DNA of 35,657 nt from a virus (IMGVR_UViG_2740892433_000005:1-35657); one strand, 5' to 3'. Positions 1-35,657 are shown, numbered from the stretch's first letter. A program made the numbers and translations. Notes: generated by a model from the sequence alone, not told the origin.

Positions 1-516
1 TCAGAGGTGCTGTTGGTGGCACTGCTCAGTTGATCCCCGGGCCAGATCATACGCGATTTTCACAGCCTTCGGCGTGGCAGCCTCAGTTTCTGATTGACTG
101 TCCGTGGCACTGCTCAGTTGTACGGTGCCTTTTGCCGTCAGCGAGGCAGCAGGCACTCCCGTTATCTGACTCCACGGGTGAGTGTGGCTGACGGGTGCCT
201 TGCCGGCTGCAAGGTCGTATGCAGCCTTGACGGCTTTTGGTGTGGCGGCCAGCGTTTCAGAGGTGCTGTTGGTGGCACTGCTCAGTTGGGTGAACCCCTT
301 AGCTGTCAGTGTCGCGTCCGGGTGGTTACGGGAACGTACGTGTTCAGCCAGTGACTGTGCGGCTTCCTCCGTTTTTTTCTTCAGCCATTTCGTCCTGTTT
401 GCCAGTTGCCGGGGGGCTCGATTTGATATCCCGTCAGCACCACCCAGAACCGGATCTGATGTCTCCAGTTGATAGATATTTTCTTCCCACTTTTCTGTTT
501 CATTCAGGTTTCCCAT
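1..516 (-). CDS. tail fiber protein, N-terminal part (gene continues past window start)
   Basis: Minus-strand ORF with ATG at 514-516, GGGAG 9 nt upstream, 2 nt after the stop of the preceding baseplate gene; two near-duplicate ~33-aa segments (TAKG..QLSSAT..SE..AATPKAVK.AYDLA) typical of fiber shafts; no stop before coordinate 1. Confidence 0.55.
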   Translation of the reverse strand: MGNLNETEKWEENIYQLETSDPVLGGADGISNRAPRQLANRTKWLKKKTEEAAQSLAEHVRSRNHPDATLTAKGFTQLSSATNSTSETLAATPKAVKAAYDLAAGKAPVSHTHPWSQITGVPAASLTAKGTVQLSSATDSQSETEAATPKAVKIAYDLARGSTEQCHQQHL

Positions 517-518
517 AA

Positions 519-1097
519 TCAACTGCTCCCGTGGTTATAACTGCCATCATGGATGGCGGTATTGTTATAGCGAATGGCCACAGACTGATACTCCAGGCTG
601 GCCAGATGGCAGCGGGCCGGTGCAAATGCAGCGAGCGTCTGACGCAGCATCGCGGCCTGATCGTTAGTAATGGGCTGTTTCAGAATAACGCGATAAACCG
701 CCCAGGCGGCTGCATCTCCATGAACAAACAGTCCGTTATAGCTGCGATTGCCGTCGTAACTGAGACGACCTGTGCCTTCAATCAGATCCACTTCACCAAA
801 GCCAAAACGGCGGATAACTTCCCGGATTGACCACGGCGTCCCTTTATACCGGTGCAGTTCGATGGCTGCTTTTATAAGCATGCGGCGAACATCGTCCGAT
901 TCCGCCAGCTCCCAGCCATCGCCAGACAGTGAGAACTGCTCGCCCAGCCATGGCAGCGCAGAACTGTCGACGATATCGACGAGAAAGACCATCAGTACGC
1001 TCAGGTCGATGTTATCCAGCCGCCCTGCCAGTCTTCCCAGCGTCCTGAGACTGATATCACCCTCAAGCGGTGGCGGGAGTTGTAATGGCTCAGTCAT
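519..1097 (-). CDS. baseplate/tail protein, P2 gpI-like (Mu gp48-like)
   Basis: ORF track 519..1109; ATG at 1097 overlaps the stop of the upstream gpJ-like gene; position immediately before the fiber gene and size match the gpI slot of P2/Mu baseplate modules. Confidence 0.55.
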   Translation of the reverse strand: MTEPLQLPPPLEGDISLRTLGRLAGRLDNIDLSVLMVFLVDIVDSSALPWLGEQFSLSGDGWELAESDDVRRMLIKAAIELHRYKGTPWSIREVIRRFGFGEVDLIEGTGRLSYDGNRSYNGLFVHGDAAAWAVYRVILKQPITNDQAAMLRQTLAAFAPARCHLASLEYQSVAIRYNNTAIHDGSYNHGSS

Positions 1098-2193: not shown

Positions 2194-2531
2194 AGCAACT
2201 CCTGAGTCCGGGTCTGTCCGTCTGAGCCTTTCCAGCTCACCCGGAGCGTAAGATGTTCGCCGTCGACGGCGGGTTTAACTGACATAAGCTGGCAGCGGGG
2301 CTCCCAGCGTCGGATGGCATCGACGGATTCGCGCACCACATGCGGAATGGCCCGGTCTACAGGCCAGTCGATATAAAGATGCAGATTGCTGCCGAACTCC
2401 GGGCGATGCGGGTCGCTGCCGCGGGGAGTCCGCAGGATAATTTGAATCGCCTGCCGGATATCATCCAGCCCCCGGACAATTTCGCCGGGAGCCTGCAGGG
2501 TCGGTTGCCAGAATACTGAGGTTGTTTTCAT
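2184..2531 (-). CDS. baseplate wedge protein W-like (gp25/GPW lysozyme-like fold family)
   Basis: 115-aa ORF directly upstream of the J-like gene with 10-nt overlap; size and order (V-W-J-I) as in P2/Mu baseplate clusters. Confidence 0.6.
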   Translation of the reverse strand: MKTTSVFWQPTLQAPGEIVRGLDDIRQAIQIILRTPRGSDPHRPEFGSNLHLYIDWPVDRAIPHVVRESVDAIRRWEPRCQLMSVKPAVDGEHLTLRVSWKGSDGQTRTQELLWR

Positions 2532-2585
2532 GGGGGCAGTATTGCCCCCGTGCGGGAACGCTGATATTAAAGGCGTTTAAAAAGC

Positions 2586-3182
2586 TCAGTGGGAGTGGTG
2601 GCTGGAGTTTTCGCCATCAGACAACATACTGCCCGTGGCATGGGCATTCCCTTTAATCTCGATATTGCCATGGATGGTCGCGGTAACACCTTCACCACCA
2701 GAACCCGCCATGCCTCCTTCGTAAATCAGCTTACCCCTGACACGCAGATCTCCGGTAAGTTCGGTTTCCGGTGCGTCAATCGTGGCTTTCTGTGTTTTCA
2801 ATACCACATCAGCACCACACTCAATGACAATATGCTCAATGCCGCCCCGGATGATCAGAGTGTGCGTCTTCCGGTTGTAGCTGTACTCTGCACCATCAGC
2901 AAACCGGGTTCCCCGGATATTTTTGTCACTGAACGGTGGTTTATCGACGTCTGAATACACCGCGCCCAGAATAACACCATCCTCGCCGTTGGCATCGAGC
3001 AGCACCTCAACCTGCTCCCCCACGTCAGGGAGCCAGTAATCTTTGTTATCCTGGGTATTGCGCTGCAGCACGTTAAGCCAGTTTGTGCGCAGGTTATCGC
3101 ATTCAGGCAGACGAACGCGGGCCTGAACCCTGTCGGCATCAACGGCACTGACCGTACCGACCTGACGAGTGACACCAGTCAT
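2586..3182 (-). CDS. baseplate assembly/spike protein V-like (Mu gp45-like)
   Basis: 198-aa ORF; ATG at 3182 overlaps the stop of the gpD-like gene (ATGA); Gly-rich C-terminal region and size typical of gpV spike proteins. Confidence 0.65.
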   Translation of the reverse strand: MTGVTRQVGTVSAVDADRVQARVRLPECDNLRTNWLNVLQRNTQDNKDYWLPDVGEQVEVLLDANGEDGVILGAVYSDVDKPPFSDKNIRGTRFADGAEYSYNRKTHTLIIRGGIEHIVIECGADVVLKTQKATIDAPETELTGDLRVRGKLIYEGGMAGSGGEGVTATIHGNIEIKGNAHATGSMLSDGENSSHHSH

Positions 3183-4351
3183 TTTTTCTTCTCTCTTATT
3201 ACTGTGGACGTGCTGCCGTCCGGTTTATAGATGGTCAGCATCCGGGTTTTGCCGATTTTTTTACCTTTCTTCGCCTTGCCCTGTGTGATCGGCCCCCGTG
3301 CCACTTCCAGCTCTGTGGTGTAGCCGCTGTTACGGTCAAACGCATGGCGGGCAGTGGTTATGAGCCATGGCCCGGATAACTGCCCAAAACCCACCAGTTC
3401 AATTTTGTTGCCTGCTGTCAGTTGAGGTGTTCCCGTCAGCGTCAGGGAGCCGTTCTGCTGGTATTCGTTATGTCTGGCCAGTGCTGAATCCGCTTTAATC
3501 CGGGCACTGTCCGGGTCGCTGACGCGGCTGTTAACTTTAAGTGAGTCAGCGCTGGTAACCTTACCACCTTTGAGCTTTTTGTCGCTTTCACGGGTACCAC
3601 CATCAGCTTCGTAGACGATCAGTTTTTTACTGCTGCTTTTCTGGTGTTTTACCTTTGCAGATTTATAGACCCGGTTGATGGTGTCACGCAGGGAAAAGCG
3701 GGCCACATCCTGCGGTTTTAACTGCCTGACCGGCTCCTGACTGCGCAGTGTGGCCAGATGAGAAAAAATCAGCTGGTCACTGACCACTTTCACTGCATAA
3801 CCATACTCGCTGGCCAGCCGGCGCAGAAAACCCACGTCGGTTTCAGCATACTGGGTCACCCGGTCGATTCTGATGGACTCAATGCTGCCCACCAGTTTCA
3901 GCCGGTGCTTTCTGGCAATCCGCCCCGCAACAGCTGCCAGCGTGGTGTTCTCAAAACCACGACTGGTTTTAGTCCGCAGGGCACTGTTAACCGAGGTGGC
4001 CACCCCACGGATAGAAACAACGGAAGCGGGCGAACTCACTTCGATCTCGTCTATAGAGAACGTACCGCAGGACAGCAGCTTCTCGTCCTGATAGCCCATT
4101 TTCAGCGTCAGCGTGTCACCCTTGCCCGGATACCACTTATCCAGCCAGCGGCCATCGGTGTCGTCCAGCTCCACCTCAATGGTATCGGACTCATTTTTGA
4201 TGTTATCGCTCCAGGTCACACGGGTGACATAAGGCGCGATATCAGAGGTGATGTTTTTCTGCAGATACCACAGAGTGAACACCGGTGTCAGCACATCGCT
4301 GACGCCGGTTAACGCTGATGTGACTTGCGCAGTGCTGTTTATCTCAGCCAT
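3179..4351 (-). CDS. tail protein D-like / baseplate hub (Mu gp44 P-like)
   Basis: 390-aa ORF following the X-like gene; basic C-terminus; order U-X-D-V-W-J-I matches P2-type tail gene order. Confidence 0.6.
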   Translation of the reverse strand: MAEINSTAQVTSALTGVSDVLTPVFTLWYLQKNITSDIAPYVTRVTWSDNIKNESDTIEVELDDTDGRWLDKWYPGKGDTLTLKMGYQDEKLLSCGTFSIDEIEVSSPASVVSIRGVATSVNSALRTKTSRGFENTTLAAVAGRIARKHRLKLVGSIESIRIDRVTQYAETDVGFLRRLASEYGYAVKVVSDQLIFSHLATLRSQEPVRQLKPQDVARFSLRDTINRVYKSAKVKHQKSSSKKLIVYEADGGTRESDKKLKGGKVTSADSLKVNSRVSDPDSARIKADSALARHNEYQQNGSLTLTGTPQLTAGNKIELVGFGQLSGPWLITTARHAFDRNSGYTTELEVARGPITQGKAKKGKKIGKTRMLTIYKPDGSTSTVIREKKK

Positions 4352-4551
4352 GGGGCAATATCCTCTTCTGTACGGGCTTCTTCAGCCTCAATCACCGGGA
4401 TCAGTAACAACAGCCCGGAGGGCAGCACCGGCGTGATGGCCACGTGCGGATTGGCGGCAATAATCCGGGGATAGCCCAGCGGGTCACCGTAGTACTGCCA
4501 TGCCAGCGAATCCCAGCGCTCTCCGTCACGGGTAACATGTTCAAGAAACAT
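4339..4551 (-). CDS. tail protein X-like (small LysM-like tail protein)
   Basis: ~70-aa ORF; ATG at 4549-4551 shares one nt with the stop of the upstream gene (TGATG); position between U-like and D-like genes. Confidence 0.45.
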   Translation of the reverse strand: MFLEHVTRDGERWDSLAWQYYGDPLGYPRIIAANPHVAITPVLPSGLLLLIPVIEAEEARTEEDIAPWLR

Positions 4552-5435
4552 CACACACTCCTCGTCAGTATTCTGGCGGCCATTGCACTTAATCCCGGAG
4601 ACATGCGGTTGAATGCTGTTCCGACGGCGTTAAGCTGCCCGGAAACGGTATCCAGAGCACCTGCAATATTTCTTTTGTCCACACCACTCAGCGCAGACTG
4701 TGCCTGCTGTACATACGTGGCTGCTTCGCTGGCTGTTCTGGCCAGACTGATGGCATCGGGCATGGATTCAGAGAGTGCGTTAAACGCCGGAACACTTTTC
4801 CCCAGAGCCCCGGAGATATTACCCAGTCCGCTCATCAGCCCCGGCACACGGGTCAGTGCGACAACGGGGTTATCCTTCATTTTCTGTGTCACTCGAACGG
4901 CGCTGATAGTGGTCTGGAGTACAGACTGCGCCTGTTTCGCATAGTTGACGCCGTTGCGGATGAACTGCGCCACCCCGGAAGGTGAAGGAATGGCACCGGA
5001 GACCGCCCCGACACCCGGGAGCTTCGTGCGTATTGCCGGTGGTTGCAGAGGATTTTTCGGGTCACCGGTGTATTCCCGGAGAGACACGGTGGCACTGACA
5101 GCCAGCACGTTGCCGGTACTGTCAGTCTGCTCGCTGGTTGCAGTCACATCGGTAATCACGAACCAGCCGCGATAGTCACCGTTGCCGAAGACCAGCGCCA
5201 GTGCCTGATGGGCTTTCATGGCTGTTCGCAGTCTCGCCAGCTCCACATCGGGTACACAATAATGCTGATGGAAAACCAGAGTTATCTGGATTTCGTCCAG
5301 CCTGTCGCCGACGAACTGCAGGCCAGGCTTACCCCCGATGCGGGCATGCTCCGCATAATCGACGCCGAACGTGGCCTCGAAGCCGTCCCAGTAGGTAATC
5401 AGCTCAAACTCAATATCACCCAGTACGGCAAACAT
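4551..5435 (-). CDS. tail protein with P2 gpU-like / Mu N (DNA circulation) N-terminal region
   Basis: 294-aa ORF immediately downstream of the tape measure gene; N-terminal segment (..RIGGKPGLQFVGDRLDEIQITLVF..) resembles gpU-type tail proteins as I remember them. Confidence 0.45.
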   Translation of the reverse strand: MFAVLGDIEFELITYWDGFEATFGVDYAEHARIGGKPGLQFVGDRLDEIQITLVFHQHYCVPDVELARLRTAMKAHQALALVFGNGDYRGWFVITDVTATSEQTDSTGNVLAVSATVSLREYTGDPKNPLQPPAIRTKLPGVGAVSGAIPSPSGVAQFIRNGVNYAKQAQSVLQTTISAVRVTQKMKDNPVVALTRVPGLMSGLGNISGALGKSVPAFNALSESMPDAISLARTASEAATYVQQAQSALSGVDKRNIAGALDTVSGQLNAVGTAFNRMSPGLSAMAARILTRSV

Positions 5436-7033
5436 CAGCGGTACTCCTTACGTTGTTTCTGAGCCAGCAGACGCTCCAGCATTTTTTCCAGCTCATGCAG
5501 ACTCATATTCAGGGCACCAGTCAGTCCTGCAGGCGCTGTGGTTTCCCTGCCATTGAGGAAAAACTGAGGATTAAAGCTGACCTGGATACCACCAGACGTT
5601 CCACCGCCGGTTGCAGCTGCACCACGGCCTGAATATCCGGCAGCCAGGATTTCAGGCGAGGGGATACGGGGAACATCCGGTGTCATCTCATTTGCCAGAC
5701 GTTGCCCTGGTAAAATCGATGCCCGGGTGGAGAGCGGAATAACGGGCATGGAAGACAAACTATTGATTACGGCTCCGATCGCATTTTTAGCAGACGACAT
5801 AAACCCATTGATATCGGGCAACGGCATACTGAAGCGAACACCTGAAGTGTTATCCCGTATTTCTGGCCCCTGAATGCTCACGGGCATTCTGGGGAGCAGT
5901 TCACTGGCCATTCGCTGCCCGGCCAGAGCTGCAAGCGGAGTGGTCCGCTGCAGGCCAATGGCGGCCCCCTGCGCGATATTGTCACCAAAGCCCATAAACA
6001 CGCGGCTCGGCGAATGAATGCCCAGCTTTTCGCTGAACCAGCCACTGATGCTGTCACCCATTCCGGTTACACTGGATTTGAGCGACTCCCATTTGTTTTT
6101 GATACCGTTAATCAGACCGTCGACAAGATGGCCACCGAAGTCGGTGAACTTTGCCGGCAGATCAACACCAAGATATTTCAGCGCAGCTGCAAAGGCTTTA
6201 TAGAGCAGGCCTGCCGGCGACCAGTTAATCAGCAGCTTACCAGTTCCCGCGATACCGCCGTTAAAGGCTTCCTGAATGTCAGCCCAGCACTGTTTAAACC
6301 AGCTACTGATGCTGTCACCCATTCCGGTTACACTGGATTTGAGCGACCCCCATTTGTTTTTGATACCGTTAATCAGACCGTCGATAAGATGGCCACCGAA
6401 GTCGGTGAACTTTGCCGGCAGAGCAACGCCGAAATATTTCAGCGCAGCCGCAAAGGCTTTATAGAGCAGGCCTGCCGGCGACCAGTTAATCAGCAACTTA
6501 CCAATTCCCACAATTCCGCCGTTAAAGGCTTCCTGAATGTCAGCCCAGCGCTGTTTAAACCAGCTACTGATGCTGTCACCCATTCCGGTTACACTGGATT
6601 TGAGCGACCCCCATTTGTTTTTGATACCGTTAATCAGACCGTCGATAAGATGGCCACCGAAGTCGGTGAACTTTGCCGGCAGAGCAACGCCGAAATATTT
6701 CAGCGCAGCCGCAAAGGCTTTATAGAGCAGGCCTGCCGGCGACCAGTTAATCAGCAACTTACCAATTCCCACAATTCCGCCGTTAAAGGCTTCCTGAATG
6801 TCAGCCCAGCGCTGTTTAAACCAGCTACTGATGCTGTCACCCATTCCGGTTACACTGGATTTGAGCGACCCCCATTTGTTTTTGATACCGTTAATCAGAC
6901 CGTCGATAAGATGGCCACCGAAGTCGGTGAACTTTGCCGGCAGAGCAACGCCGAAATATTTCAGCGCAGCCGCAAAGGCTTTATAGAGCAGGCCTGCCGG
7001 CGACCAGTTAATCAGCAACTTACCAATTCCCAC
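5435..7033 (-). pseudogene. tail tape measure protein, C-terminal segment (out of frame with the N-terminal segment)
   Basis: 532-aa ORF made of 87-aa tandem repeat units followed by a unique C-terminus; same gene as 7012..9801 but in a different frame because of a 110-bp aberrant repeat unit at 7059-7168. Confidence 0.55.
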
Positions 7034-7995
7034 AATGCCGCCGTTAAAGGCTTCCTGAATGTCAGCCCAGCGCTGTTTAAACCAACCACTGACAGCCCCC
7101 CACCTGCCGGCGACCAGTTAATCAGCAACTTACCAATTCCCACAATTCCGCCGTTAAAGGCTTCCTGAATGTCAGCCCAGCGCTGTTTAAACCAGCTACT
7201 GATGCTGTCACCCATTCCGGTTACACTGGATTTGAGCGACCCCCATTTGTTTTTGATACCGTTAATCAGACCGTCGATAAGATGGCCACCGAAGTCGGTG
7301 AACTTTGCCGGCAGAGCAACGCCGAAATATTTCAGCGCAGCCGCAAAGGCTTTATAGAGCAGGCCTGCCGGCGACCAGTTAATCAGCAACTTACCAATTC
7401 CCACAATGCCGCCGTTAAAGGCTTCCTGAATGTCAGCCCAGCGCTGTTTAAACCAGCTACTGATGCTGTCACCCATTCCGGTTACACTGGATTTGAGCGA
7501 CCCCCATTTGTTTTTGATACCGTTAATCAGACCGTCGATAAGATGGCCACCGAAGTCGGTGAACTTTGCCGGCAGAGCAACGCCGAAATATTTCAGCGCA
7601 GCCGCAAAGGCTTTATAGAGCAGGCCTGCCGGCGACCAGTTAATCAGCAACTTACCAATTCCCACAATGCCGCCGTTAAAGGCTTCCTGAATGTCAGCCC
7701 AGCGCTGTTTAAACCAGCTACTGATGCTGTCACCCATTCCGGTTACACTGGATTTGAGCGACCCCCATTTGTTTTTGATACCGTTAATCAGACCGTCGAT
7801 AAGATGGCCACCGAAGTCGGTGAACTTTGCCGGCAGAGCAACGCCGAAATATTTCAGCGCAGCCGCAAAGGCTTTATAGAGCAGGCCTGCCGGCGACCAG
7901 TTAATCAGCAACTTACCAATTCCCACAATGCCGCCGTTAAAGGCTTCCTGAATGTCAGCCCAGCGCTGTTTAAACCAACCACTGACAGCCCCCCA
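6018..7995 (-). repeat. tandem array of ~261-bp (87-aa) repeats inside the tape measure gene, about 8 units
   Basis: The unit-start motif atgtcagcccagcgctgtttaaacca recurs at 6276, 6537, 6798, 7059, 7169, 7430, 7691 and 7952 (spacing 261, 261, 261, 110, 261, 261, 261); units are nearly identical at nucleotide level. Confidence 0.9.
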
Positions 7996-9801
7996 GTTGC
8001 GGTAGATAAGGTAAGCTGCTGTCGCGACAGCGGTGATAACGAGACCGATGGGATTCATCATCAGCGCTCGCCCAATCCAGAGAACGGCACGTGCAGCGCT
8101 CATAAAACCGCGAACGAGGCTGCCCGCCAGAACTTTGCTGAGTTTCAGTCCTCCGCTGGTCAGTCGGCTGAATCCAGTGACAAGCCAGCGTAATTTGCCA
8201 CCTTCTCCGAGTGCGGTAGTCAGTCGATGCCAGTTGGTCCGGAGTAAAACAGTAGTTTTCCAGACGTTCACAAAGGGGGAAATAAGGAGATTCAGCCCCA
8301 GTTTGAGACCAATAGTCGCTATCTTAATCGCAAGGAGCGCACTGATGAGCTTAAAAGCCCCACTGACAAATTGCGGGTGAGTCGCTACCCAGTGTTTTGT
8401 CCCCTGAATGAGTGGGAGCAGTTCCTGAGTCAGAGAAATAAAAGATGGAGCTAATTGATCGCCCAGCGTAATTGCCAGATCGCGACTGCTGACCATAAGT
8501 GTTTTAGTGGCTTCAAGGGGAGATTTCAGCCGCTGATCATAAGCACTGGCAAGCAAATCGTTATCCGCAGCCCTGAGAGCACCGGCACGGATCTCTCGAT
8601 ATCTGTCCATGTTGGCCAGCATCGGGCGGATAAATGCCATGACCTGCATATCCGCGAACATATCGCCCAGACCAAAGTTTTTCGCCAGAGCCTGAAGTGC
8701 CTCATCTCTTGCCGTATCATTCTTTATTTTCATGGCTGATTTGAAGCCGGCCAGCGCTTCGGGGCTTTTGGCATTGAGGTAACGTTCTATAACACTCAAC
8801 ATCCCTTCAATCGGAGAGATCCCCGCAGCTTTATAACTCGCAATAGATCCCTGCAAATCAATACCCAGATCAGCAAACTGTTTCTGAGTATCGCGGGCAA
8901 AAATTTTGGTAAGAAAGTTTTTAAAATTATTGGCTGCTTCGTCGGTGGAACCTGCACCGATTTTTGCTATCTGGAGACTGGCCCCGATTTCAGCAACAGC
9001 CTCTTTTCCACTGGCAAGACCCGCCATCATTGGGGCCAGGGACTGCATCCACTTGACCTGATCCGGGATTTCAAATGACCCCTGGTCACCGGCATAAGCC
9101 ATAATATTCTGAACGGCACCAAAATCTCTGGCCGCACCTTTCAGGGAGTTTTGCCAGACTGCGGCCACTTTTGCCCAGTCCTGAGCAGACGTGCGTGTTG
9201 CCGTTGCCGCGCGGGCAATATCCGGCATCAGAAAACCGATATCTGACACATTATCAATATTGTCGCTGATGAGTGAACCCACCGCCTCCTGCAGCTCATC
9301 CTGATACTGATTGTATTTAAGCGCCCAGCCTTTTATCTGTCCGGCAAGTGCATCCCGCGTTTTATTGTCATATTTTGCGGTGATCGACATATCAATCATT
9401 TTGTCCTGAAAAGACATGGACTGCTGAACGGCAGGGGAAACCGTATGATAAACAGTCTGTGCCATGCCATACGCTTCAATCCCCTGACCATACAGCGCCA
9501 TGCGGTTAGCTTTCAGCGCATCACTGGTAGCGGATGCCGCTGACAGACGGCGCTGCTGGCGCTCAATTTGCTCCATGGTGCGGCTTACCCGCAGCAGCTC
9601 GCTGTTGAGATGCTGCATCCGGGAAGAACCCAGTTGACCATAACGTTCTGTTGCACGGGTTAAAGCGTTCTGACGTTCCTGCAGGCGGCGTGAGGTATCG
9701 CTCAGGGAATCAAGCGCACGGCGGGTACCGCTCATTGCAGAACGGAATGTGCTGCCAATCATCCCGCCGATAACAACGCCGACTGAAAACTGTCCCGACA
9801 T
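7012..9801 (-). CDS. tail tape measure protein, N-terminal segment including the first repeat units
   Basis: 929-aa ORF; ATG at 9801 with GGAGG 9 nt upstream; long Ala/Gln-rich helical N-terminal region typical of tape measure proteins, then 87-aa repeats; ORF ends inside the aberrant repeat unit. Confidence 0.75.
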   Translation of the reverse strand: MSGQFSVGVVIGGMIGSTFRSAMSGTRRALDSLSDTSRRLQERQNALTRATERYGQLGSSRMQHLNSELLRVSRTMEQIERQQRRLSAASATSDALKANRMALYGQGIEAYGMAQTVYHTVSPAVQQSMSFQDKMIDMSITAKYDNKTRDALAGQIKGWALKYNQYQDELQEAVGSLISDNIDNVSDIGFLMPDIARAATATRTSAQDWAKVAAVWQNSLKGAARDFGAVQNIMAYAGDQGSFEIPDQVKWMQSLAPMMAGLASGKEAVAEIGASLQIAKIGAGSTDEAANNFKNFLTKIFARDTQKQFADLGIDLQGSIASYKAAGISPIEGMLSVIERYLNAKSPEALAGFKSAMKIKNDTARDEALQALAKNFGLGDMFADMQVMAFIRPMLANMDRYREIRAGALRAADNDLLASAYDQRLKSPLEATKTLMVSSRDLAITLGDQLAPSFISLTQELLPLIQGTKHWVATHPQFVSGAFKLISALLAIKIATIGLKLGLNLLISPFVNVWKTTVLLRTNWHRLTTALGEGGKLRWLVTGFSRLTSGGLKLSKVLAGSLVRGFMSAARAVLWIGRALMMNPIGLVITAVATAAYLIYRNWGAVSGWFKQRWADIQEAFNGGIVGIGKLLINWSPAGLLYKAFAAALKYFGVALPAKFTDFGGHLIDGLINGIKNKWGSLKSSVTGMGDSISSWFKQRWADIQEAFNGGIVGIGKLLINWSPAGLLYKAFAAALKYFGVALPAKFTDFGGHLIDGLINGIKNKWGSLKSSVTGMGDSISSWFKQRWADIQEAFNGGIVGIGKLLINWSPAGLLYKAFAAALKYFGVALPAKFTDFGGHLIDGLINGIKNKWGSLKSSVTGMGDSISSWFKQRWADIQEAFNGGIVGIGKLLINWSPAGGGLSVVGLNSAGLTFRKPLTAALWELVSC

Positions 9802-9876: not shown

Positions 9877-10134
9877 CTATGATTTGTCGCCGTACTCGCT
9901 TTTGATTTGCTCTTCAGCCTGCTCCAGCCACATCTCCAGATCGTCAGTATCGAGGGCATCAATCTCCCCCGGCTGAAACCGGAACCATCTCGCCAGCAGC
10001 CCCTGCGCCTGCGTCAGCGCCCTGGTTGCTCTCACCCATCCCCGTGATGAGCTGAAATCGTTTCTGTAACTGCAGGTAATCAGCCAGATCCATATTGTCG
10101 AGATCTTCCGGGAGAAGACCAGTACTGCGGGCAA
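9877..10134 (-). CDS. putative frameshift-extended C-terminal segment of the tail assembly chaperone (+1/-2 frame)
   Basis: ORF overlapping the 3' half of the chaperone gene in the +1 frame; its last ~45 codons (..GLLARWFRFQPGEIDALDTDDLEMWLEQAEEQIKSEYGDKS) look protein-like and end 75 nt before the tape measure gene, the classic chaperone-extension position. Confidence 0.35.
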   Translation of the reverse strand: MPAVLVFSRKISTIWIWLITCSYRNDFSSSRGWVRATRALTQAQGLLARWFRFQPGEIDALDTDDLEMWLEQAEEQIKSEYGDKS

Positions 10135-10294
10135 TCAGCGGTTCGTCCCAGTCTGCCGGGTTTTTGCTGATTTTGCGCACCTGCTTCAGGTCTTTTACCG
10201 TCAGGCGTTTCAGTTCAACCAGCTCAATTCTGGTGCCTGCAGCAGTGGTGAAGGGATAAGACAATTTAAAAGTATCGGATGGGGTCTGTGACAT
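9959..10294 (-). CDS. tail assembly chaperone
   Basis: 111-aa acidic ORF between tube-side genes and the tape measure gene; ATG at 10294 with AGGAG 8 nt upstream; overlapping alternate-frame ORF downstream as in G/GT-type chaperones. Confidence 0.55.
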   Translation of the reverse strand: MSQTPSDTFKLSYPFTTAAGTRIELVELKRLTVKDLKQVRKISKNPADWDEPLIARSTGLLPEDLDNMDLADYLQLQKRFQLITGMGESNQGADAGAGAAGEMVPVSAGGD

Positions 10295-26498: not shown

Positions 26499-26804
26499 AT
26501 GAGTAAGGCGAATGTTTCAAGCTCCGGCACCCGTATCCTTCGGGTACTTAAGGCACTGCGCGGTCATGCCCTGAACGGTATTTCCAACGGTGAACTGGCA
26601 GCAGCACTGCACGAGTCACCGGCAAACATCAACCGGGCACTCAACACCCTCATCGAAGAAGGGCTGGCTCTGAAACTGGAAAACGGACGTTTTGCGCCGG
26701 GCATCCAGTTGCTGCAGATCGCCATGGCTCATAACAATGAAATGGCCCATGCCCAGGCCCGTATTAATGAAATCAACCAGCGTGTTATCGCTGGCAGCCG
26801 TTAA
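26499..26804 (+). CDS. putative winged-helix DNA-binding regulator
   Basis: ATG at 26499 preceded by AAAAGGTG; product ..GTRILRVLKALRGHALNGISNGELAAALHESPANINRALNTLIEEGLA.. looks like a winged-helix HTH. Confidence 0.4.
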   Translation: MSKANVSSSGTRILRVLKALRGHALNGISNGELAAALHESPANINRALNTLIEEGLALKLENGRFAPGIQLLQIAMAHNNEMAHAQARINEINQRVIAGSR

Positions 26805-26813
26805 GGAATAACT

Positions 26814-27746
26814 ATGGCTCGTACAAAATCACAACCTGCTGAACTTGTCCCTGACGTGGAACTGAATCCTGAACTGGAATCAACCCAAAATTTAATGGCA
26901 ACAGCTATCAGCCAGATTACTGATGAACGTGACCTGCTGAACCAATTACTTGGCCAAGCACAGATGGCAGGAGCATTCGAAGATTTTTCCCGCACCGTGC
27001 GGACTTCTAAACTGGCTTTTGTCAAAGAAAACAAGCTATACCGAAATTTAAAAGGCTCAAAAAGTCCGCACGGTGCGGAAAAAATGTCAGGAACATGGGA
27101 AGAATTTTGCAGTTTGCTTGGCAGGTCTGTTGATCAAGTAGATCGCGATATTGCCAACCTGAGAACCTTCGGCGAAGAAGCCCTCGAATCCATGTCACGT
27201 ATGGGAATCGGTTACCGTGAATTACGCCAGTTCCGCCGGCTGCCGGACGACCAGAAAAACGCACTCATTGAAGTGGCCAAAGAAGGCGATAAAACGGCCC
27301 TGCTGGAATTAGCAGAAGAAATGATCGCCAGACACACAAAAGAGAAAGAAGAACTTAAAACTGATCTCGAAATCAGCCGTCAGATGCTGGCAGAGAAGAA
27401 AAGTGAAATCGAAGTTCTCAAGGATCAGACTGACGAACTAAAGACAAAACTGACGCGCCGCGCGACAACAGAGACACCTGATGAAGAAGGTCAGGTACTT
27501 GAAACTGAAGCCACCGGTTTTAAGAGCGGTGTACTCAGCGCTCTTATCAACCTCAAATGCGGTTTTGAGGCACTGGCCGAACACGCAGAACGTACAGGTA
27601 TCAGCCATACCCACATTATGACAGGGTTGCTTGATGATATTGAAGCCCGTGTTGTCGATATGCGTCAGCAGTTTGATTTGCCTGACTTCCGCGAGATTGA
27701 TGGCATGCCGGACTGGGTGAAAGAAGCACAGGAAGGGGATGAATAA
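26814..27746 (+). CDS. hypothetical protein with coiled-coil region
   Basis: 310-aa ORF with AAGGA RBS; Glu/Lys-rich central heptad-like segment; AT-rich compared with flanking phage genes; no family recognised. Confidence 0.4.
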   Translation: MARTKSQPAELVPDVELNPELESTQNLMATAISQITDERDLLNQLLGQAQMAGAFEDFSRTVRTSKLAFVKENKLYRNLKGSKSPHGAEKMSGTWEEFCSLLGRSVDQVDRDIANLRTFGEEALESMSRMGIGYRELRQFRRLPDDQKNALIEVAKEGDKTALLELAEEMIARHTKEKEELKTDLEISRQMLAEKKSEIEVLKDQTDELKTKLTRRATTETPDEEGQVLETEATGFKSGVLSALINLKCGFEALAEHAERTGISHTHIMTGLLDDIEARVVDMRQQFDLPDFREIDGMPDWVKEAQEGDE

Positions 27747-28092
27747 CATGGTCGCTTCACATCCGACACCACCAGTAAAAGAACGCGAACCACAAGAAAG
27801 CCTTTTTATGGACAGCCCGGAAGCTCTTGGATACGCGTTATGCACTCTTGTACCAGACATGATGGCGGGATTCAGCATCCTGACAAGTACCGGAGAAATC
27901 AGGATTTCAGCACCCGATGCGCCTGCATTTGCCACTGCAATGGAAACATTACTTCTGGAAAAAATTCACTATATCCAGAACGAACGCAGTGACCATTCTG
28001 CCAACAAACGGGCTGTTGAGGCTGCGGAGAAACTTCTGGAGAACCGTAAGAAATGGAAGCAATGGCAACAAGAAGTGAAGGCTAATTTATGA
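27739..28092 (+). CDS. hypothetical protein
   Basis: 117-aa ORF overlapping the stop of the upstream gene and the start of the transposase gene (ATGA). Confidence 0.35.
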   Translation: MNNMVASHPTPPVKEREPQESLFMDSPEALGYALCTLVPDMMAGFSILTSTGEIRISAPDAPAFATAMETLLLEKIHYIQNERSDHSANKRAVEAAEKLLENRKKWKQWQQEVKANL

Positions 28093-29882
28093 ATCCGGCG
28101 CTGACGCAACGGCTCGTCAGCATAGCCGCCGCCGCTGACGCAGCTATACACGGCGAAAAAGAGGCGGTATACCGGGCGGCGTGTGAAGAATTACAGATGT
28201 CACGCGCCACCCTGCTAAAAAAGCTTAAGGGTGTACGGATGAGCAAACCACGCAAACAGCGATCTGATGCAGGTAAAACGACACTGACTCACGATGAAAT
28301 GCTGACTATTTCTGGTGCATGGCTGGCATCACCTCGCCCTGGTAACGGCAAGAAAGGTTACAGCCTGGAGGATATTGTGGACGGTTTACGCGATAACGGT
28401 CTGATTATTGCTGGTCGAACCGATACTGAGACTGGAGAATTTTTCCCGCTATCAATTGACGCCATCAGTCGCGCCCTCCGCCAGCATCGTATGCATCCCG
28501 ACCAGTTACGGGCACCATCTCCTGCTCTGGAGCTGGCCAGCCTGCACCCAAACCACGTCTGGCAACTGGATGCGTCTATTTGCGTACTGTATTACCTCAA
28601 AAATCCGGCTAAAAAGGCTAAGGGGGACACCGGACTGCGCGTCATGAGCGCAGCAGAGTTCAACAAAAACAAACCCCGCAATTTGGACCGTATTGTCAAT
28701 GACAGGGTGTGGTCATTTGAAATCACCGACCATACCACAGGCTGGATTTACGTCGAGTACCGCTTCGGTGGTGAAAGCGCCGTCAACTTTCTGGAGGTGA
28801 TGATTAACGCCATGCAGGAACGCGGTGGTGCAGACGTGCTGCACGGCGTGCCGAAGATTCTGTTTACTGACCCGGGCTCTGCACTTGTTTCAGCCTCCCT
28901 GCTCAACATGTGCCGGGCGATGGGTATTTGTACCATTCAGCATAAGGCTCACAACGCCCGGGCCACCGGTTCGGTGGAAAAAGCCCGTGACATTATCGAA
29001 CGCAAGTTTGAAGGGGGGCTGCGTTTTCTGAGGGTGGATGATATTGATGAACTGAACCGGCTTGCACGTCTCTGGCGCATGAAGTTTAACCGCACAGCAA
29101 TTCACAGCCGCCACTGTATGTCGCGTACAGATGCGTGGTTGAGAATTACCGAAGAGCAACTGGTAAAAGCCCCGGCACCTGAAATCTGCAGGGAACTGGC
29201 CATCTCTTTACCTGAAGAACGCACTGTTACCGGCAAGTTGCGCGTACCTTTCAGAGGCAAGGAATACGATGTGTCTGATGTTCCTGGTGTATTTGTCGGT
29301 GACAAGGTGATGGTTGCCCGTAATCCCTGGTCAGATGAGGAGGCCAGAGTCGTTATCATCAATGATGAAGGCTTTGAAACCTTCCATGTTATTAACGCAA
29401 TACAGAAAGATGAACTCTGGCAGTACAGCACCAGTGCGCCGGTGATTGGAGAGGAGTACCGTCAGTTACCGGAGACCATTACCCGGACGAACCGCGATGA
29501 GGTGGAGCAACATACCTACGGCACTGCCAGCCGGGAAGAAACAGATGCGGCTAAAAAAGACAAAGCTCTGCCATTCGGTGGTCGCTTCAACCCTTATCTG
29601 GATATTGAGCGCGATGATCATCCTGCCTACCTGCCGAAGCGAGGCCAGGCCTCTGACGTACGCGGACCGCGCACTGAACAGCGTCCCATGACTCATGTGG
29701 AGGCCGCGAAAGCCCTGCGCGATAAGTTCAGCGCCGACGGCCTTACCTGGACGCCGGAACATTACCGCCAGTTAACGGCACAGTACCCGGACGGCGTACC
29801 GGAAGCTGCACTGGATGAAGTCATGGCCACGCTGACCACGCCGGCACGCAGCAGTGTTATCAGCATTGTTAACGGCAACTGA
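28089..29882 (+). CDS. DDE-type transposase (integrase-core, rve-like)
   Basis: 597 aa; N-terminal HTH-like region; candidate catalytic residues in ..HVWQLDASI.., ..ILFTDPGSA.. and a Glu ~35 residues further on, the D-D-35-E spacing of retroviral-integrase-type transposases; followed by an ATPase gene as in Mu A/B and Tn552-type pairs. Confidence 0.7.
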   Translation: MNPALTQRLVSIAAAADAAIHGEKEAVYRAACEELQMSRATLLKKLKGVRMSKPRKQRSDAGKTTLTHDEMLTISGAWLASPRPGNGKKGYSLEDIVDGLRDNGLIIAGRTDTETGEFFPLSIDAISRALRQHRMHPDQLRAPSPALELASLHPNHVWQLDASICVLYYLKNPAKKAKGDTGLRVMSAAEFNKNKPRNLDRIVNDRVWSFEITDHTTGWIYVEYRFGGESAVNFLEVMINAMQERGGADVLHGVPKILFTDPGSALVSASLLNMCRAMGICTIQHKAHNARATGSVEKARDIIERKFEGGLRFLRVDDIDELNRLARLWRMKFNRTAIHSRHCMSRTDAWLRITEEQLVKAPAPEICRELAISLPEERTVTGKLRVPFRGKEYDVSDVPGVFVGDKVMVARNPWSDEEARVVIINDEGFETFHVINAIQKDELWQYSTSAPVIGEEYRQLPETITRTNRDEVEQHTYGTASREETDAAKKDKALPFGGRFNPYLDIERDDHPAYLPKRGQASDVRGPRTEQRPMTHVEAAKALRDKFSADGLTWTPEHYRQLTAQYPDGVPEAALDEVMATLTTPARSSVISIVNGN

Positions 29883-29892
29883 GGAGGAAAAC

Positions 29893-31059
29893 ATGCTGGT
29901 ACTGAAGCAGCAACTGAAAGAGGCCCGTATCCCACAGGCGGTGGTGGCGAGAGCTGTCGATGTTTCTGAGGCCACGCTGGCCCAGATTGTGAATCATAAC
30001 GCGTGGCCCCGCACCAGCCCCGGAGAAGTGCGCCGGCGTCTTGCGTCCTGGCTGGAAAGTCAGGGGATTGATACAACGAAGAGTTTTGATGCTGTACAGG
30101 GCGCAGCCACGCCCCGTACAGCGGGTACCACAGATAAAACGAGCCTCAGTGAGGAAGAGAATATGTTACTCAAAAAACAGGTGTTATTTCCAGCAACCAA
30201 AAAAGCGTTTGGTCTTTTCCGTGACCCGTTCGCCGATGAAGCCATGCAGGGTTCTGATGATGTGTTCACCACCCCGGACATTCGCTACGTGCGTGAGGCG
30301 TTGTACCAGACAGCCCGTCATGGTGGGTTTATGGCCGTCATCGGTGAGTCCGGTGCGGGTAAATCCACGCTGCGCCGCGACCTGACTGAACGTATCAACC
30401 GCGAGAATGCGCCGGTAATTGTTATCGAGCCATACATCATCGCTATGGAAGACAACGATGTGAAAGGGAAAACCCTGAAGGCAGCAGCGATTGCCGAAGC
30501 CATTATCAGTACCATCGCACCACTGGAAAGCATCAGACGCAGTCAGGACGCCCGTTTTCGCCAGTTGCATCGCGTCCTGAAAGACAGCAGCCAGGCGGGG
30601 TTCAGCCACGTTCTGGTGATTGAGGAGGCCCACAGTCTGCCCATTCCGACACTGAAACACCTCAAACGCTTTTTTGAGCTGGAGTCCGGTTTCAAAAAAC
30701 TGCTGTCCATCGTGCTGATTGGCCAGCCGGAACTGGCGACAAAACTGTCTGAACGCAATATGGAAGTCCGTGAAGTCGTTCAGCGCTGTGAGGTGGTCGA
30801 ACTTCTGCCTCTGGACAATAACCTTGAAGAATTTCTGACGTTCAAACTGCAACGGGCCGGTAAACAGCTGACGGACATTATGGACGCCGGTGCAGTGGAT
30901 GCCATACGTGCCCGCCTGAGCAATCCGGGAAGTCACCGTAAAAATATGGTCAGCCTGCTGTATCCGCTGGCCGTCAGTAACCTGGTAATAGCCGCCATGA
31001 ATCTGGCCGCTGAAATCGGGGTTCCACAGGTCAACGCTGACGTTGTCAAAGGGGTTTAA
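29893..31059 (+). CDS. transposition ATPase (MuB-like, AAA+)
   Basis: ATG at 29893 with GAGGAGG upstream; N-terminal HTH-like segment then Walker A ..GESGAGKST.. and Walker B-like ..HVLVIEEAH..; immediately downstream of the transposase. Confidence 0.7.
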   Translation: MLVLKQQLKEARIPQAVVARAVDVSEATLAQIVNHNAWPRTSPGEVRRRLASWLESQGIDTTKSFDAVQGAATPRTAGTTDKTSLSEEENMLLKKQVLFPATKKAFGLFRDPFADEAMQGSDDVFTTPDIRYVREALYQTARHGGFMAVIGESGAGKSTLRRDLTERINRENAPVIVIEPYIIAMEDNDVKGKTLKAAAIAEAIISTIAPLESIRRSQDARFRQLHRVLKDSSQAGFSHVLVIEEAHSLPIPTLKHLKRFFELESGFKKLLSIVLIGQPELATKLSERNMEVREVVQRCEVVELLPLDNNLEEFLTFKLQRAGKQLTDIMDAGAVDAIRARLSNPGSHRKNMVSLLYPLAVSNLVIAAMNLAAEIGVPQVNADVVKGV

Positions 31060-35024: not shown

Positions 35025-35657
35025 ATGTTTGACGTTTCGTTGTTAAATCTGCCATGGGCAACACTGGTGACCCTGACCAGTGGCTATATTGGGTATTTTA
35101 TTGCGAATGTGGGACTGAAGGATCACCACAAGCCCATTGAGGTGACTTTTTCTTCGCTGATTTTTGGCCTGACAGCAATGATGGCTTACCAGGCTGTTAT
35201 GTGGGCAGGTCTGAATGCCTGGCTGGCAACACCACCAGCACTTCTGTGTGCCGTTACATGCGGTGCGTGGTGGCGCAGGTACGGTCGCAAATGGATGTAC
35301 AGATTACTGTGGAATAATGATATTTCATGGTCTGACGATACCAGCTCAGCATGGCAGGCAATGTTTGATCAAACAGGCTTCAGCGTTACCGAGGTCAGAG
35401 TGATTCTTCGCGATGGTTCCGGTATGATGTCACGACTGCCAGGGAACTTTGAAGAGTGGCCTAACGGTCCGTTTACCCTGGGGAATAAAGGCGATATGGT
35501 TCTTTACGTCACGCACAGCAGCCCTTCAGGCAGTAACGAATGGGAAGAGTATAAAGGCGTGGTTGATAAGTACTGGGGAGCTCTGGCAACCTATATTCCA
35601 GCAGATCAGATTGCCAGAGTGGAGATCAGGCGCGTTCGTGCGACGAACGATGAATGA
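35025..35657 (+). CDS. membrane protein of unknown function (3 predicted N-terminal TM helices plus soluble C-terminal domain)
   Basis: ATG at 35025 with AGGGAG 8 nt upstream; hydrophobic segments in the first ~90 residues; stop codon is the last three bases of the window. Confidence 0.5.
   Translation: MFDVSLLNLPWATLVTLTSGYIGYFIANVGLKDHHKPIEVTFSSLIFGLTAMMAYQAVMWAGLNAWLATPPALLCAVTCGAWWRRYGRKWMYRLLWNNDISWSDDTSSAWQAMFDQTGFSVTEVRVILRDGSGMMSRLPGNFEEWPNGPFTLGNKGDMVLYVTHSSPSGSNEWEEYKGVVDKYWGALATYIPADQIARVEIRRVRATNDE

Follow-up and report, generated by a model that had tools for sequence, protein, structure and literature searches.

A recent out-of-frame duplication has probably turned the tape measure gene of a BcepMu-like Escherichia coli prophage into a pseudogene

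The DNA analysed here, a stretch of 35,657 nucleotides (IMGVR_UViG_2740892433_000005:1-35657, hereafter the window), belongs to a Mu-like prophage of Escherichia coli and carries on its minus strand the gene for the tape measure protein (TMP; positions 5435-9801, 4367 nt). In this gene, an expanded array of 261-bp tandem repeats contains a second, ectopic copy of its own junction with the unique N-terminal region, and the joint thus formed breaks the reading frame. As written, the gene is filed from its sequence as a TMP pseudogene rather than as a functional TMP, and we regard a recent and real pseudogenisation, out of frame, as the probable explanation. The order of events, the mechanism of slippage, the tail-less phenotype and the reality of the lesion in the organism are what we infer from the observations below.

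The original prediction, made without database searches, had described a unit-start motif recurring at regular distances with a single aberrant short unit. The 26-nt motif is indeed found at 6276, 6537, 6798, 7059, 7169, 7430, 7691 and 7952 (eight matches against none expected from shuffled sequences, the copy at 6276 having one mismatch), and the step between copies is 261 bp throughout except for a single step of 110 bp at 7059-7168. The short unit has the make-up that had been proposed, namely 26 nt of unit start, an 18-mer (ACCACTGACAGCCCCCCA) and the final 66 nt of a unit, and the 18-mer occurs only there (7085-7102) and at 7978-7995. Tandem Repeats Finder (TRF) reports a period of 261 with 4.0 and 3.4 copies at 97-99% matches, as well as periods of 110 and 371, the latter at 99% matches. 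The array of "about eight near-identical" units is therefore real as an array, but its count has to be revised to six complete units with 0-1 differences, one diverged unit (14/261 differences) and one hybrid; the predicted unit size of 87 aa agrees with tblastn, which counts seven full 87-aa units.

Read in gene orientation, with each unit starting at the motif (motif plus 235 nt), the gene has the following layout, all on the minus strand. The unique N-terminal region (7996-9801), with no differences in 2305 nt relative to the related loci L001, L004 and L019-L024, leads into the native junction 18-mer (J copy 1, 7978-7995, TGGGGGGCTGTCAGTGGT in gene orientation), which is single and alike in relatives. 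Unit comparison then places three 100% identical 261-bp units (7195-7977), followed by a 92-nt unit fragment that ends at the breakpoint (7103-7194). Next comes the ectopic J copy 2 (7085-7102), located by the 18-mer search and in the printed units, and after it three more complete units (6302-7084, again from unit comparison), the diverged terminal unit present in all relatives (6041-6301) and the unique C-terminal domain of about 200 aa with its stop (5435-6040), which is unreachable from the start codon. A C/A single-nucleotide polymorphism (SNP) at unit position 48 orders the units: three of C type and the A-type fragment before J copy 2, then one of C type, two of A type and the diverged unit. 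The A variant at this position is also present in the relative L024, whose flanks are identical to those of the window. The novel joint lies between 7103 and 7102, where GGCAGG runs directly into TGGGGGG (the joint sequence spans GGCAGGTGGGGGG), and it abuts a run of six G (G6, or C6 on the plus strand) inside J copy 2 (7096-7101); the wider joint with six G reads GGCAGGTGGGGGGCTG. No microhomology was found at the novel joint; the sequences just upstream of the breakpoints are loosely alike (CCGGCAGG vs CCGCAAC).

Passage through this joint adds 110+261n nt; of these two lengths, 261 is a multiple of 3 but 110 is not, so that the frame is broken at any copy number. Analysis of the open reading frames (ORFs) and reading of the frame across the joint agree with the predicted frame break and truncated product: the gene, including its C-terminal domain, is not a single ORF and is split on the minus strand into the two ORFs that had been listed, ORF1 (7012-9801, 929 aa) and, in another frame, ORF2 (5435-7033, 532 aa). 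ORF1 comprises the unique N-terminal region, three units and 30 aa of a fourth; it leaves the native frame after ...INWSPAG, reads about 29 residues out of frame and then meets the stop at 7012. From 7117 down to 5435 the native TMP frame is open once more, and residues 605-1070 of the intact TMP align to 6835-5438 in tblastn. ORF2 starts at an internal GTG, which, as judged by its sequence, has no convincing Shine-Dalgarno sequence, and covers about 3.7 units and the unique C-terminal domain. Since the joint shifts the frame and a stop follows at 7012, only the 929-aa N-terminal fragment could be made. One extra G in the G6 run would restore the TMP frame.

The identification as a tape measure gene, also part of the original prediction, is upheld by profile searches and by gene order. 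ORF1 matches PF10145 over residues 159-340 (74.8 bits, cut-off 33.2) and TIGR01760 over residues 119-493 (60.1 bits, cut-off 28.8). The tail module reads sheath, tube, hypothetical, gpE-like chaperone, TMP, gpU, gpX, gpD, V, W, J, I and fibre, which places the gene after a tail assembly chaperone and before baseplate-hub genes. The adjacent genes, both on the minus strand, are intact: upstream, the gpE-like chaperone (9959-10294) is 100% identical to that of strain STIN_95 and matches PF10109 in relatives, and downstream lies the gpU-like tail protein (4551-5435). At the corresponding position, L001 and L004 have an intact 1070-aa orthologue. Pfam and NCBIfam matches of ORF2 to Chalcone_2 and IS607_TnpB were set aside as they fell under the curated cut-offs, and a match to DUF5009 because it contained no individually significant stretch.

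The comparison with the same gene in related prophages, which the original prediction had called for, gave intact alleles in which one to three units lie behind a single J within one open frame. Among E. coli, the best matches (99.3% identical) cover the region in 4147 bp, against 5301 bp in the window; their TMP, intact at 1070 aa, has one J, two units that are near-identical and one that is diverged. Such intact alleles (WP_001529030.1, 1070 aa, in strains EC11 and STIN_95, and forms of 983 and 896 aa) share with the window the gene, its position and neighbours, the 261-bp unit and the diverged last unit, and their unique regions are identical to it at the DNA level (0-1 differences in 3.8 kb, made up of flanks with none in 2305 nt and 0-1 in 1490 nt). 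They differ from it in having one, two or three units with a single J in one frame, whereas the window has seven units, a second J and a frameshift. In a spread sample taken from the 639 complete E. coli genomes that carry the prophage family, spans of 4147, 3886 and about 3622 bp correspond to three, two and one units, and spans above 4147 bp occur only with an insertion sequence (IS). The 4147-bp, three-unit span at the TMP-region query is also that of SCU-105, which among complete genomes is the closest in the early region. Across 82 related loci drawn from complete genomes, drafts and IMG/VR, the TMP has one unit in 55, two in 13 and three in 14. Because 55 of the 82 have one unit, the 87-aa module was originally single-copy, and its duplication is confined to the E. 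coli clade, which has two or three copies. The best 120 of 810 protein matches by score have lengths of 1084, 1070, 983, 896 and 883 aa, besides contig-end partials and a few other lengths, and none of these 120 is longer than 1084 aa. One candidate parallel was rejected. A 106-bp query across the joint gave only two-piece matches (record span 110) in E. coli genomes, which at first resembled a conserved 114-bp unit; in L001 this proved to be the native J joined with the tail of the preceding unit, and the hybrid unit is found in no relative.

Duplications of the same class have arisen independently in two relatives. In P0001/L025 (1084-aa TMP; GCA_018489775.1, JAHBHB010000006.1, 1501-4755), a perfect in-frame tandem duplication of 303 bp begins in the unique region, runs across J and stops after 75 nt of the first unit; the microhomology is 2 nt (GA), and the ORF is intact. 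In L079, a distant member (IMGVR_UViG_2568526497_000007, about 2383-3712), an in-frame tandem duplication of 705 nt (235 aa) includes the 87-aa module; its copies share about 89% identity, and the 1038-aa ORF is unbroken. Both periods are multiples of 3, whereas that of the window (371 nt, or 893 nt in its present state) is not.

The order of the C and A variants along the array fits a 371-bp duplication followed by unit gains, and so supports the segmental duplication with a breakpoint inside a unit that had been suggested. In the most economical history, the ancestor had J followed by units of C, A and A type and the diverged unit, or a smaller array plus a gained unit. A non-homologous template switch would then have re-copied J through 92 nt of the second unit, that is 371 bp (18+261+92 nt; 371 mod 3 = 2), and homologous slippage or unequal exchange would have added two identical C-type units. 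The 371-bp step is favoured because the fragment shares its variant with the unit placed after the C-type one in the second block, and because TRF detects the period of 371. Replication slippage or unequal sister-strand exchange acts readily on direct repeats of 261 bp, hence the proposed unit gains, while the ectopic J would need one illegitimate template switch. A larger duplication followed by unit loss would be an equivalent history. A plain 893-bp tandem duplication as the sole event was discarded: the end of its first copy (7103-7168, 66 nt) matches an A-type unit and not the in-register diverged unit (6210-6275).

Several observations weigh against a real lesion. The array is known from assembled sequence, and at least three rearrangement steps are needed in almost no divergence time, given the near-identical flanks. 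The state is unique: the window has over twice as many units as any relative, and no relative exceeds three among the 82 loci, the sample taken from the 639 genomes and the best 120 protein matches. A search of 5426 complete E. coli genomes gave no contiguous match to the joint, an exact search for its 31-mer gave none in genome_contigs, viral_contigs and metagenome_contigs, and an exact look-up of both ORF products returned none on record. The array is also a trouble spot for assembly: the TMP of phage PhiKM is annotated as "disrupted by sequencing gap", and many "partial" TMPs and contigs end within the array. Finally, the joint lacks microhomology and abuts a G6 run that reads G5 in L024, so that a 1-nt miscall could mask an in-frame gene.

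Most of these points would also be expected if the true TMP were an ordinary in-frame gene of two to four units, to which extra units and the ectopic J had been added by a mis-resolved repeat graph, chimeric reads, mixed prophage copies or a minority variant. The complete identity of three units would fit such an artefact, as would the presence of two such prophages in several E. coli strains (L017/L018, L022/L023). We consider this explanation possible but unlikely. Collapse or expansion of repeats alone cannot make a J-to-unit joint, so that the joint sequence and its k-mers must exist in the reads, and the SNP pattern is coherent with stepwise duplication, which would favour a real lesion. 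The assembly is not riddled with indels, since about 50 other prophage genes are full-length and free of frameshifts, with structural proteins 98-100% identical to those of an intact prophage. The natural in-frame duplications in P0001/L025 and L079, together with a lesion in the tail-fibre gene described below, likewise support a real event. The "collapsed assembly" that the original prediction had offered as an alternative does not hold: a collapse removes units and yields no second J, and the relatives have fewer units than the window. The artefacts that matter are instead a chimeric joint, a wrong copy number and, in the G6 run next to the joint, a miscall of 1 nt.

With such a miscall, G7 read as G6 at 7096-7101 (or an equivalent error elsewhere in the array), the duplication would be real and the gene in frame, encoding a functional TMP of about 1455 aa and a tail some 55-60 nm longer. 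Adding a single base to the G run brings the native frame back at once (...SPAGGGAVSGWFKQRW...), and elongated in-frame TMPs are known in relatives. In L024 (NCTC assembly UGDF01000003.1, 13868-13886), a long-read assembly, the G run of J is G5 and not G6 and the TMP is split into ORFs of 631 and 445 aa, through a genuine slippage mutation or an error of long reads at a homopolymer, which marks the run as prone to indels or errors. However, G6 is read in both J copies of the window, as in all relatives, and G7 would require a second, compensating event. No other homopolymer frameshift occurs in the roughly 50 other genes, and the broken tail-fibre gene suggests relaxed selection. An intact elongated TMP hidden by a miscall thus seems improbable to us.

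A real lesion could in principle also be leaky, if ribosomes slipped by -1 between 7117 and 7015, at a heptamer or at the G run, and produced a TMP of about 1455 aa and rare particles, again with tails about 55-60 nm longer. A speculative rescue site is the heptamer T_TTA_AAC (7075-7081, minus strand), which follows the X_XXY_YYZ pattern in the ORF1 frame (7081-7075) and whose phase in the shifted frame would let a -1 slip lead into the TMP frame, open from 7117 to 5435. The joint also creates a G-rich, Shine-Dalgarno-like AGGTGGGGGG 14 nt upstream, and few TMP copies suffice per tail. The heptamer is, however, not of an efficient kind, as shifts from AAC to AAA in the A site are inefficient in E. 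coli (PMC4066793). No stimulatory RNA structure was found at the heptamer, where the fold z-score of -0.04 is no better than that of shuffled sequences, and its conservation is impossible to show because the joint is unique. The arrangement is accidental, the fibre gene is broken as well, and we hold such a rescue to be very improbable; if true, the freshly expanded tape measure would have gained a natural "saviour" frameshift.

The second lesion, in the tail-fibre gene, affects the N-terminal part of that gene (1-522, minus strand), which is frame-broken with 44 nt missing and a stop at 1-3; the remainder of the gene lies outside the window. Its first 483 nt are identical to those of intact fibres of 526-630 aa (A24, STIN_95), and the loss falls into two deletions, one of 40 nt between GGGA direct repeats and another of 4 nt; assembly errors are not typically of this type. 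The lesion has no contiguous match in the 5426 E. coli genomes. The fibre genes of STIN_95 (L004, 34817-36709) and A24 (L099, 1403-2983) themselves contain tandem repeats of about 300 nt with QLSSAT...PKAVKAAYDLA modules, and the repeat number varies by strain (630 aa vs 526 aa), making this a second length-variable array in the tail module.

The C-terminus of TMPs is needed to nucleate tail assembly at the baseplate or initiator, and length variants of the lambda TMP, gpH, set tail length. In phage TP901-1, the C-terminal 60 aa of the TMP are required for tail assembly, tail length is linear with TMP length, and internal TMP repeats have been proposed to ease duplication and deletion (Mahony et al. 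2016, PMC5099701). Variants of the TP901-1 type concern siphophages with aromatic repeats of 11/18 aa, whereas the window holds a contractile-tail Mu-like prophage with an 87-aa module, and its change is out of frame, so that the TMP is destroyed rather than lengthened. Since TMPs need their C-terminus for tail assembly, the 929-aa fragment, which lacks the C-terminal domain of about 200 aa, should by analogy not support it, and the prophage is probably unable to build tails, as had been predicted. Its replication, transposition, head and lysis genes are intact, and, as the fibre gene is broken too, the element is best viewed as a young cryptic prophage whose early, head and lysis functions are preserved. 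In a lysogen, the TMP is under no selection, so that out-of-frame products persist; those seen in circulating phage (261, 303 and 705 nt) are all in frame.

Inactivation of the TMP recurs in lysogens of this prophage family. The gene is disrupted by IS66 or IS3 in H34 (AP046545), H35 (OZ039818), H125 and L020 (CM128543.1), and by frameshifts in L015 (+1, near the N-terminus) and L024 (1 nt). These lesions are IS insertions or single-base indels, whereas that of the window is a segmental duplication in an expanded array.

The kind of event is already known, both as prophage gene decay and as plasticity of TMP repeats; what is unusual in this specimen is the copy number, the non-homologous joint and the identity of the flanks. 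If real, it would be a very young snapshot of prophage decay, with the first lesions in two repeat-bearing tail genes and the rest intact, and the array would display the raw mutational spectrum of TMP repeats, unit gains together with an illegitimate duplication. An induced lysogen should release tail-less heads, and prophage-calling tools would still score the element as "intact". In E. coli assemblies (ST131, ST73 and related genomes), the TMP array and the G6 run are spots that need checking.

The element is a BcepMu-like transposable prophage of E. coli. Beyond the tail module and lysis genes, it has full-length homologues of a DDE transposase, a MuB-like ATPase, Gam, Mor, a Mu-type portal, Mu F and Mu gp27, gp36 and gp37, besides Mu-type head genes, identified through annotation and Pfam in relatives collinear with the window. 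The closest phage record is PhiKM (96.7% identical), which is classified in Bcepmuvirus, and the family was found in 639 of the 5426 complete E. coli genomes. An identical 597-aa transposase adjoins different host genes in 10 loci, as expected for insertion at multiple sites, and in STIN_95 the prophage is inserted within gcl. This 597-aa protein, 100% identical to the transposase of the window, recurs in at least 114 collection blocks, which represent many sites in the chromosome. The early region of the window is a mosaic (26800-29900 compared with L004): relative to STIN_95, identity is only 64% for the transposase but 98-100% for the late genes. The window begins and ends precisely on stop codons, at 1-3 (the truncated fibre ORF) and at 35655-35657 (a 210-aa gene, 35025-35657), and was probably cut on gene calls rather than at contig ends.

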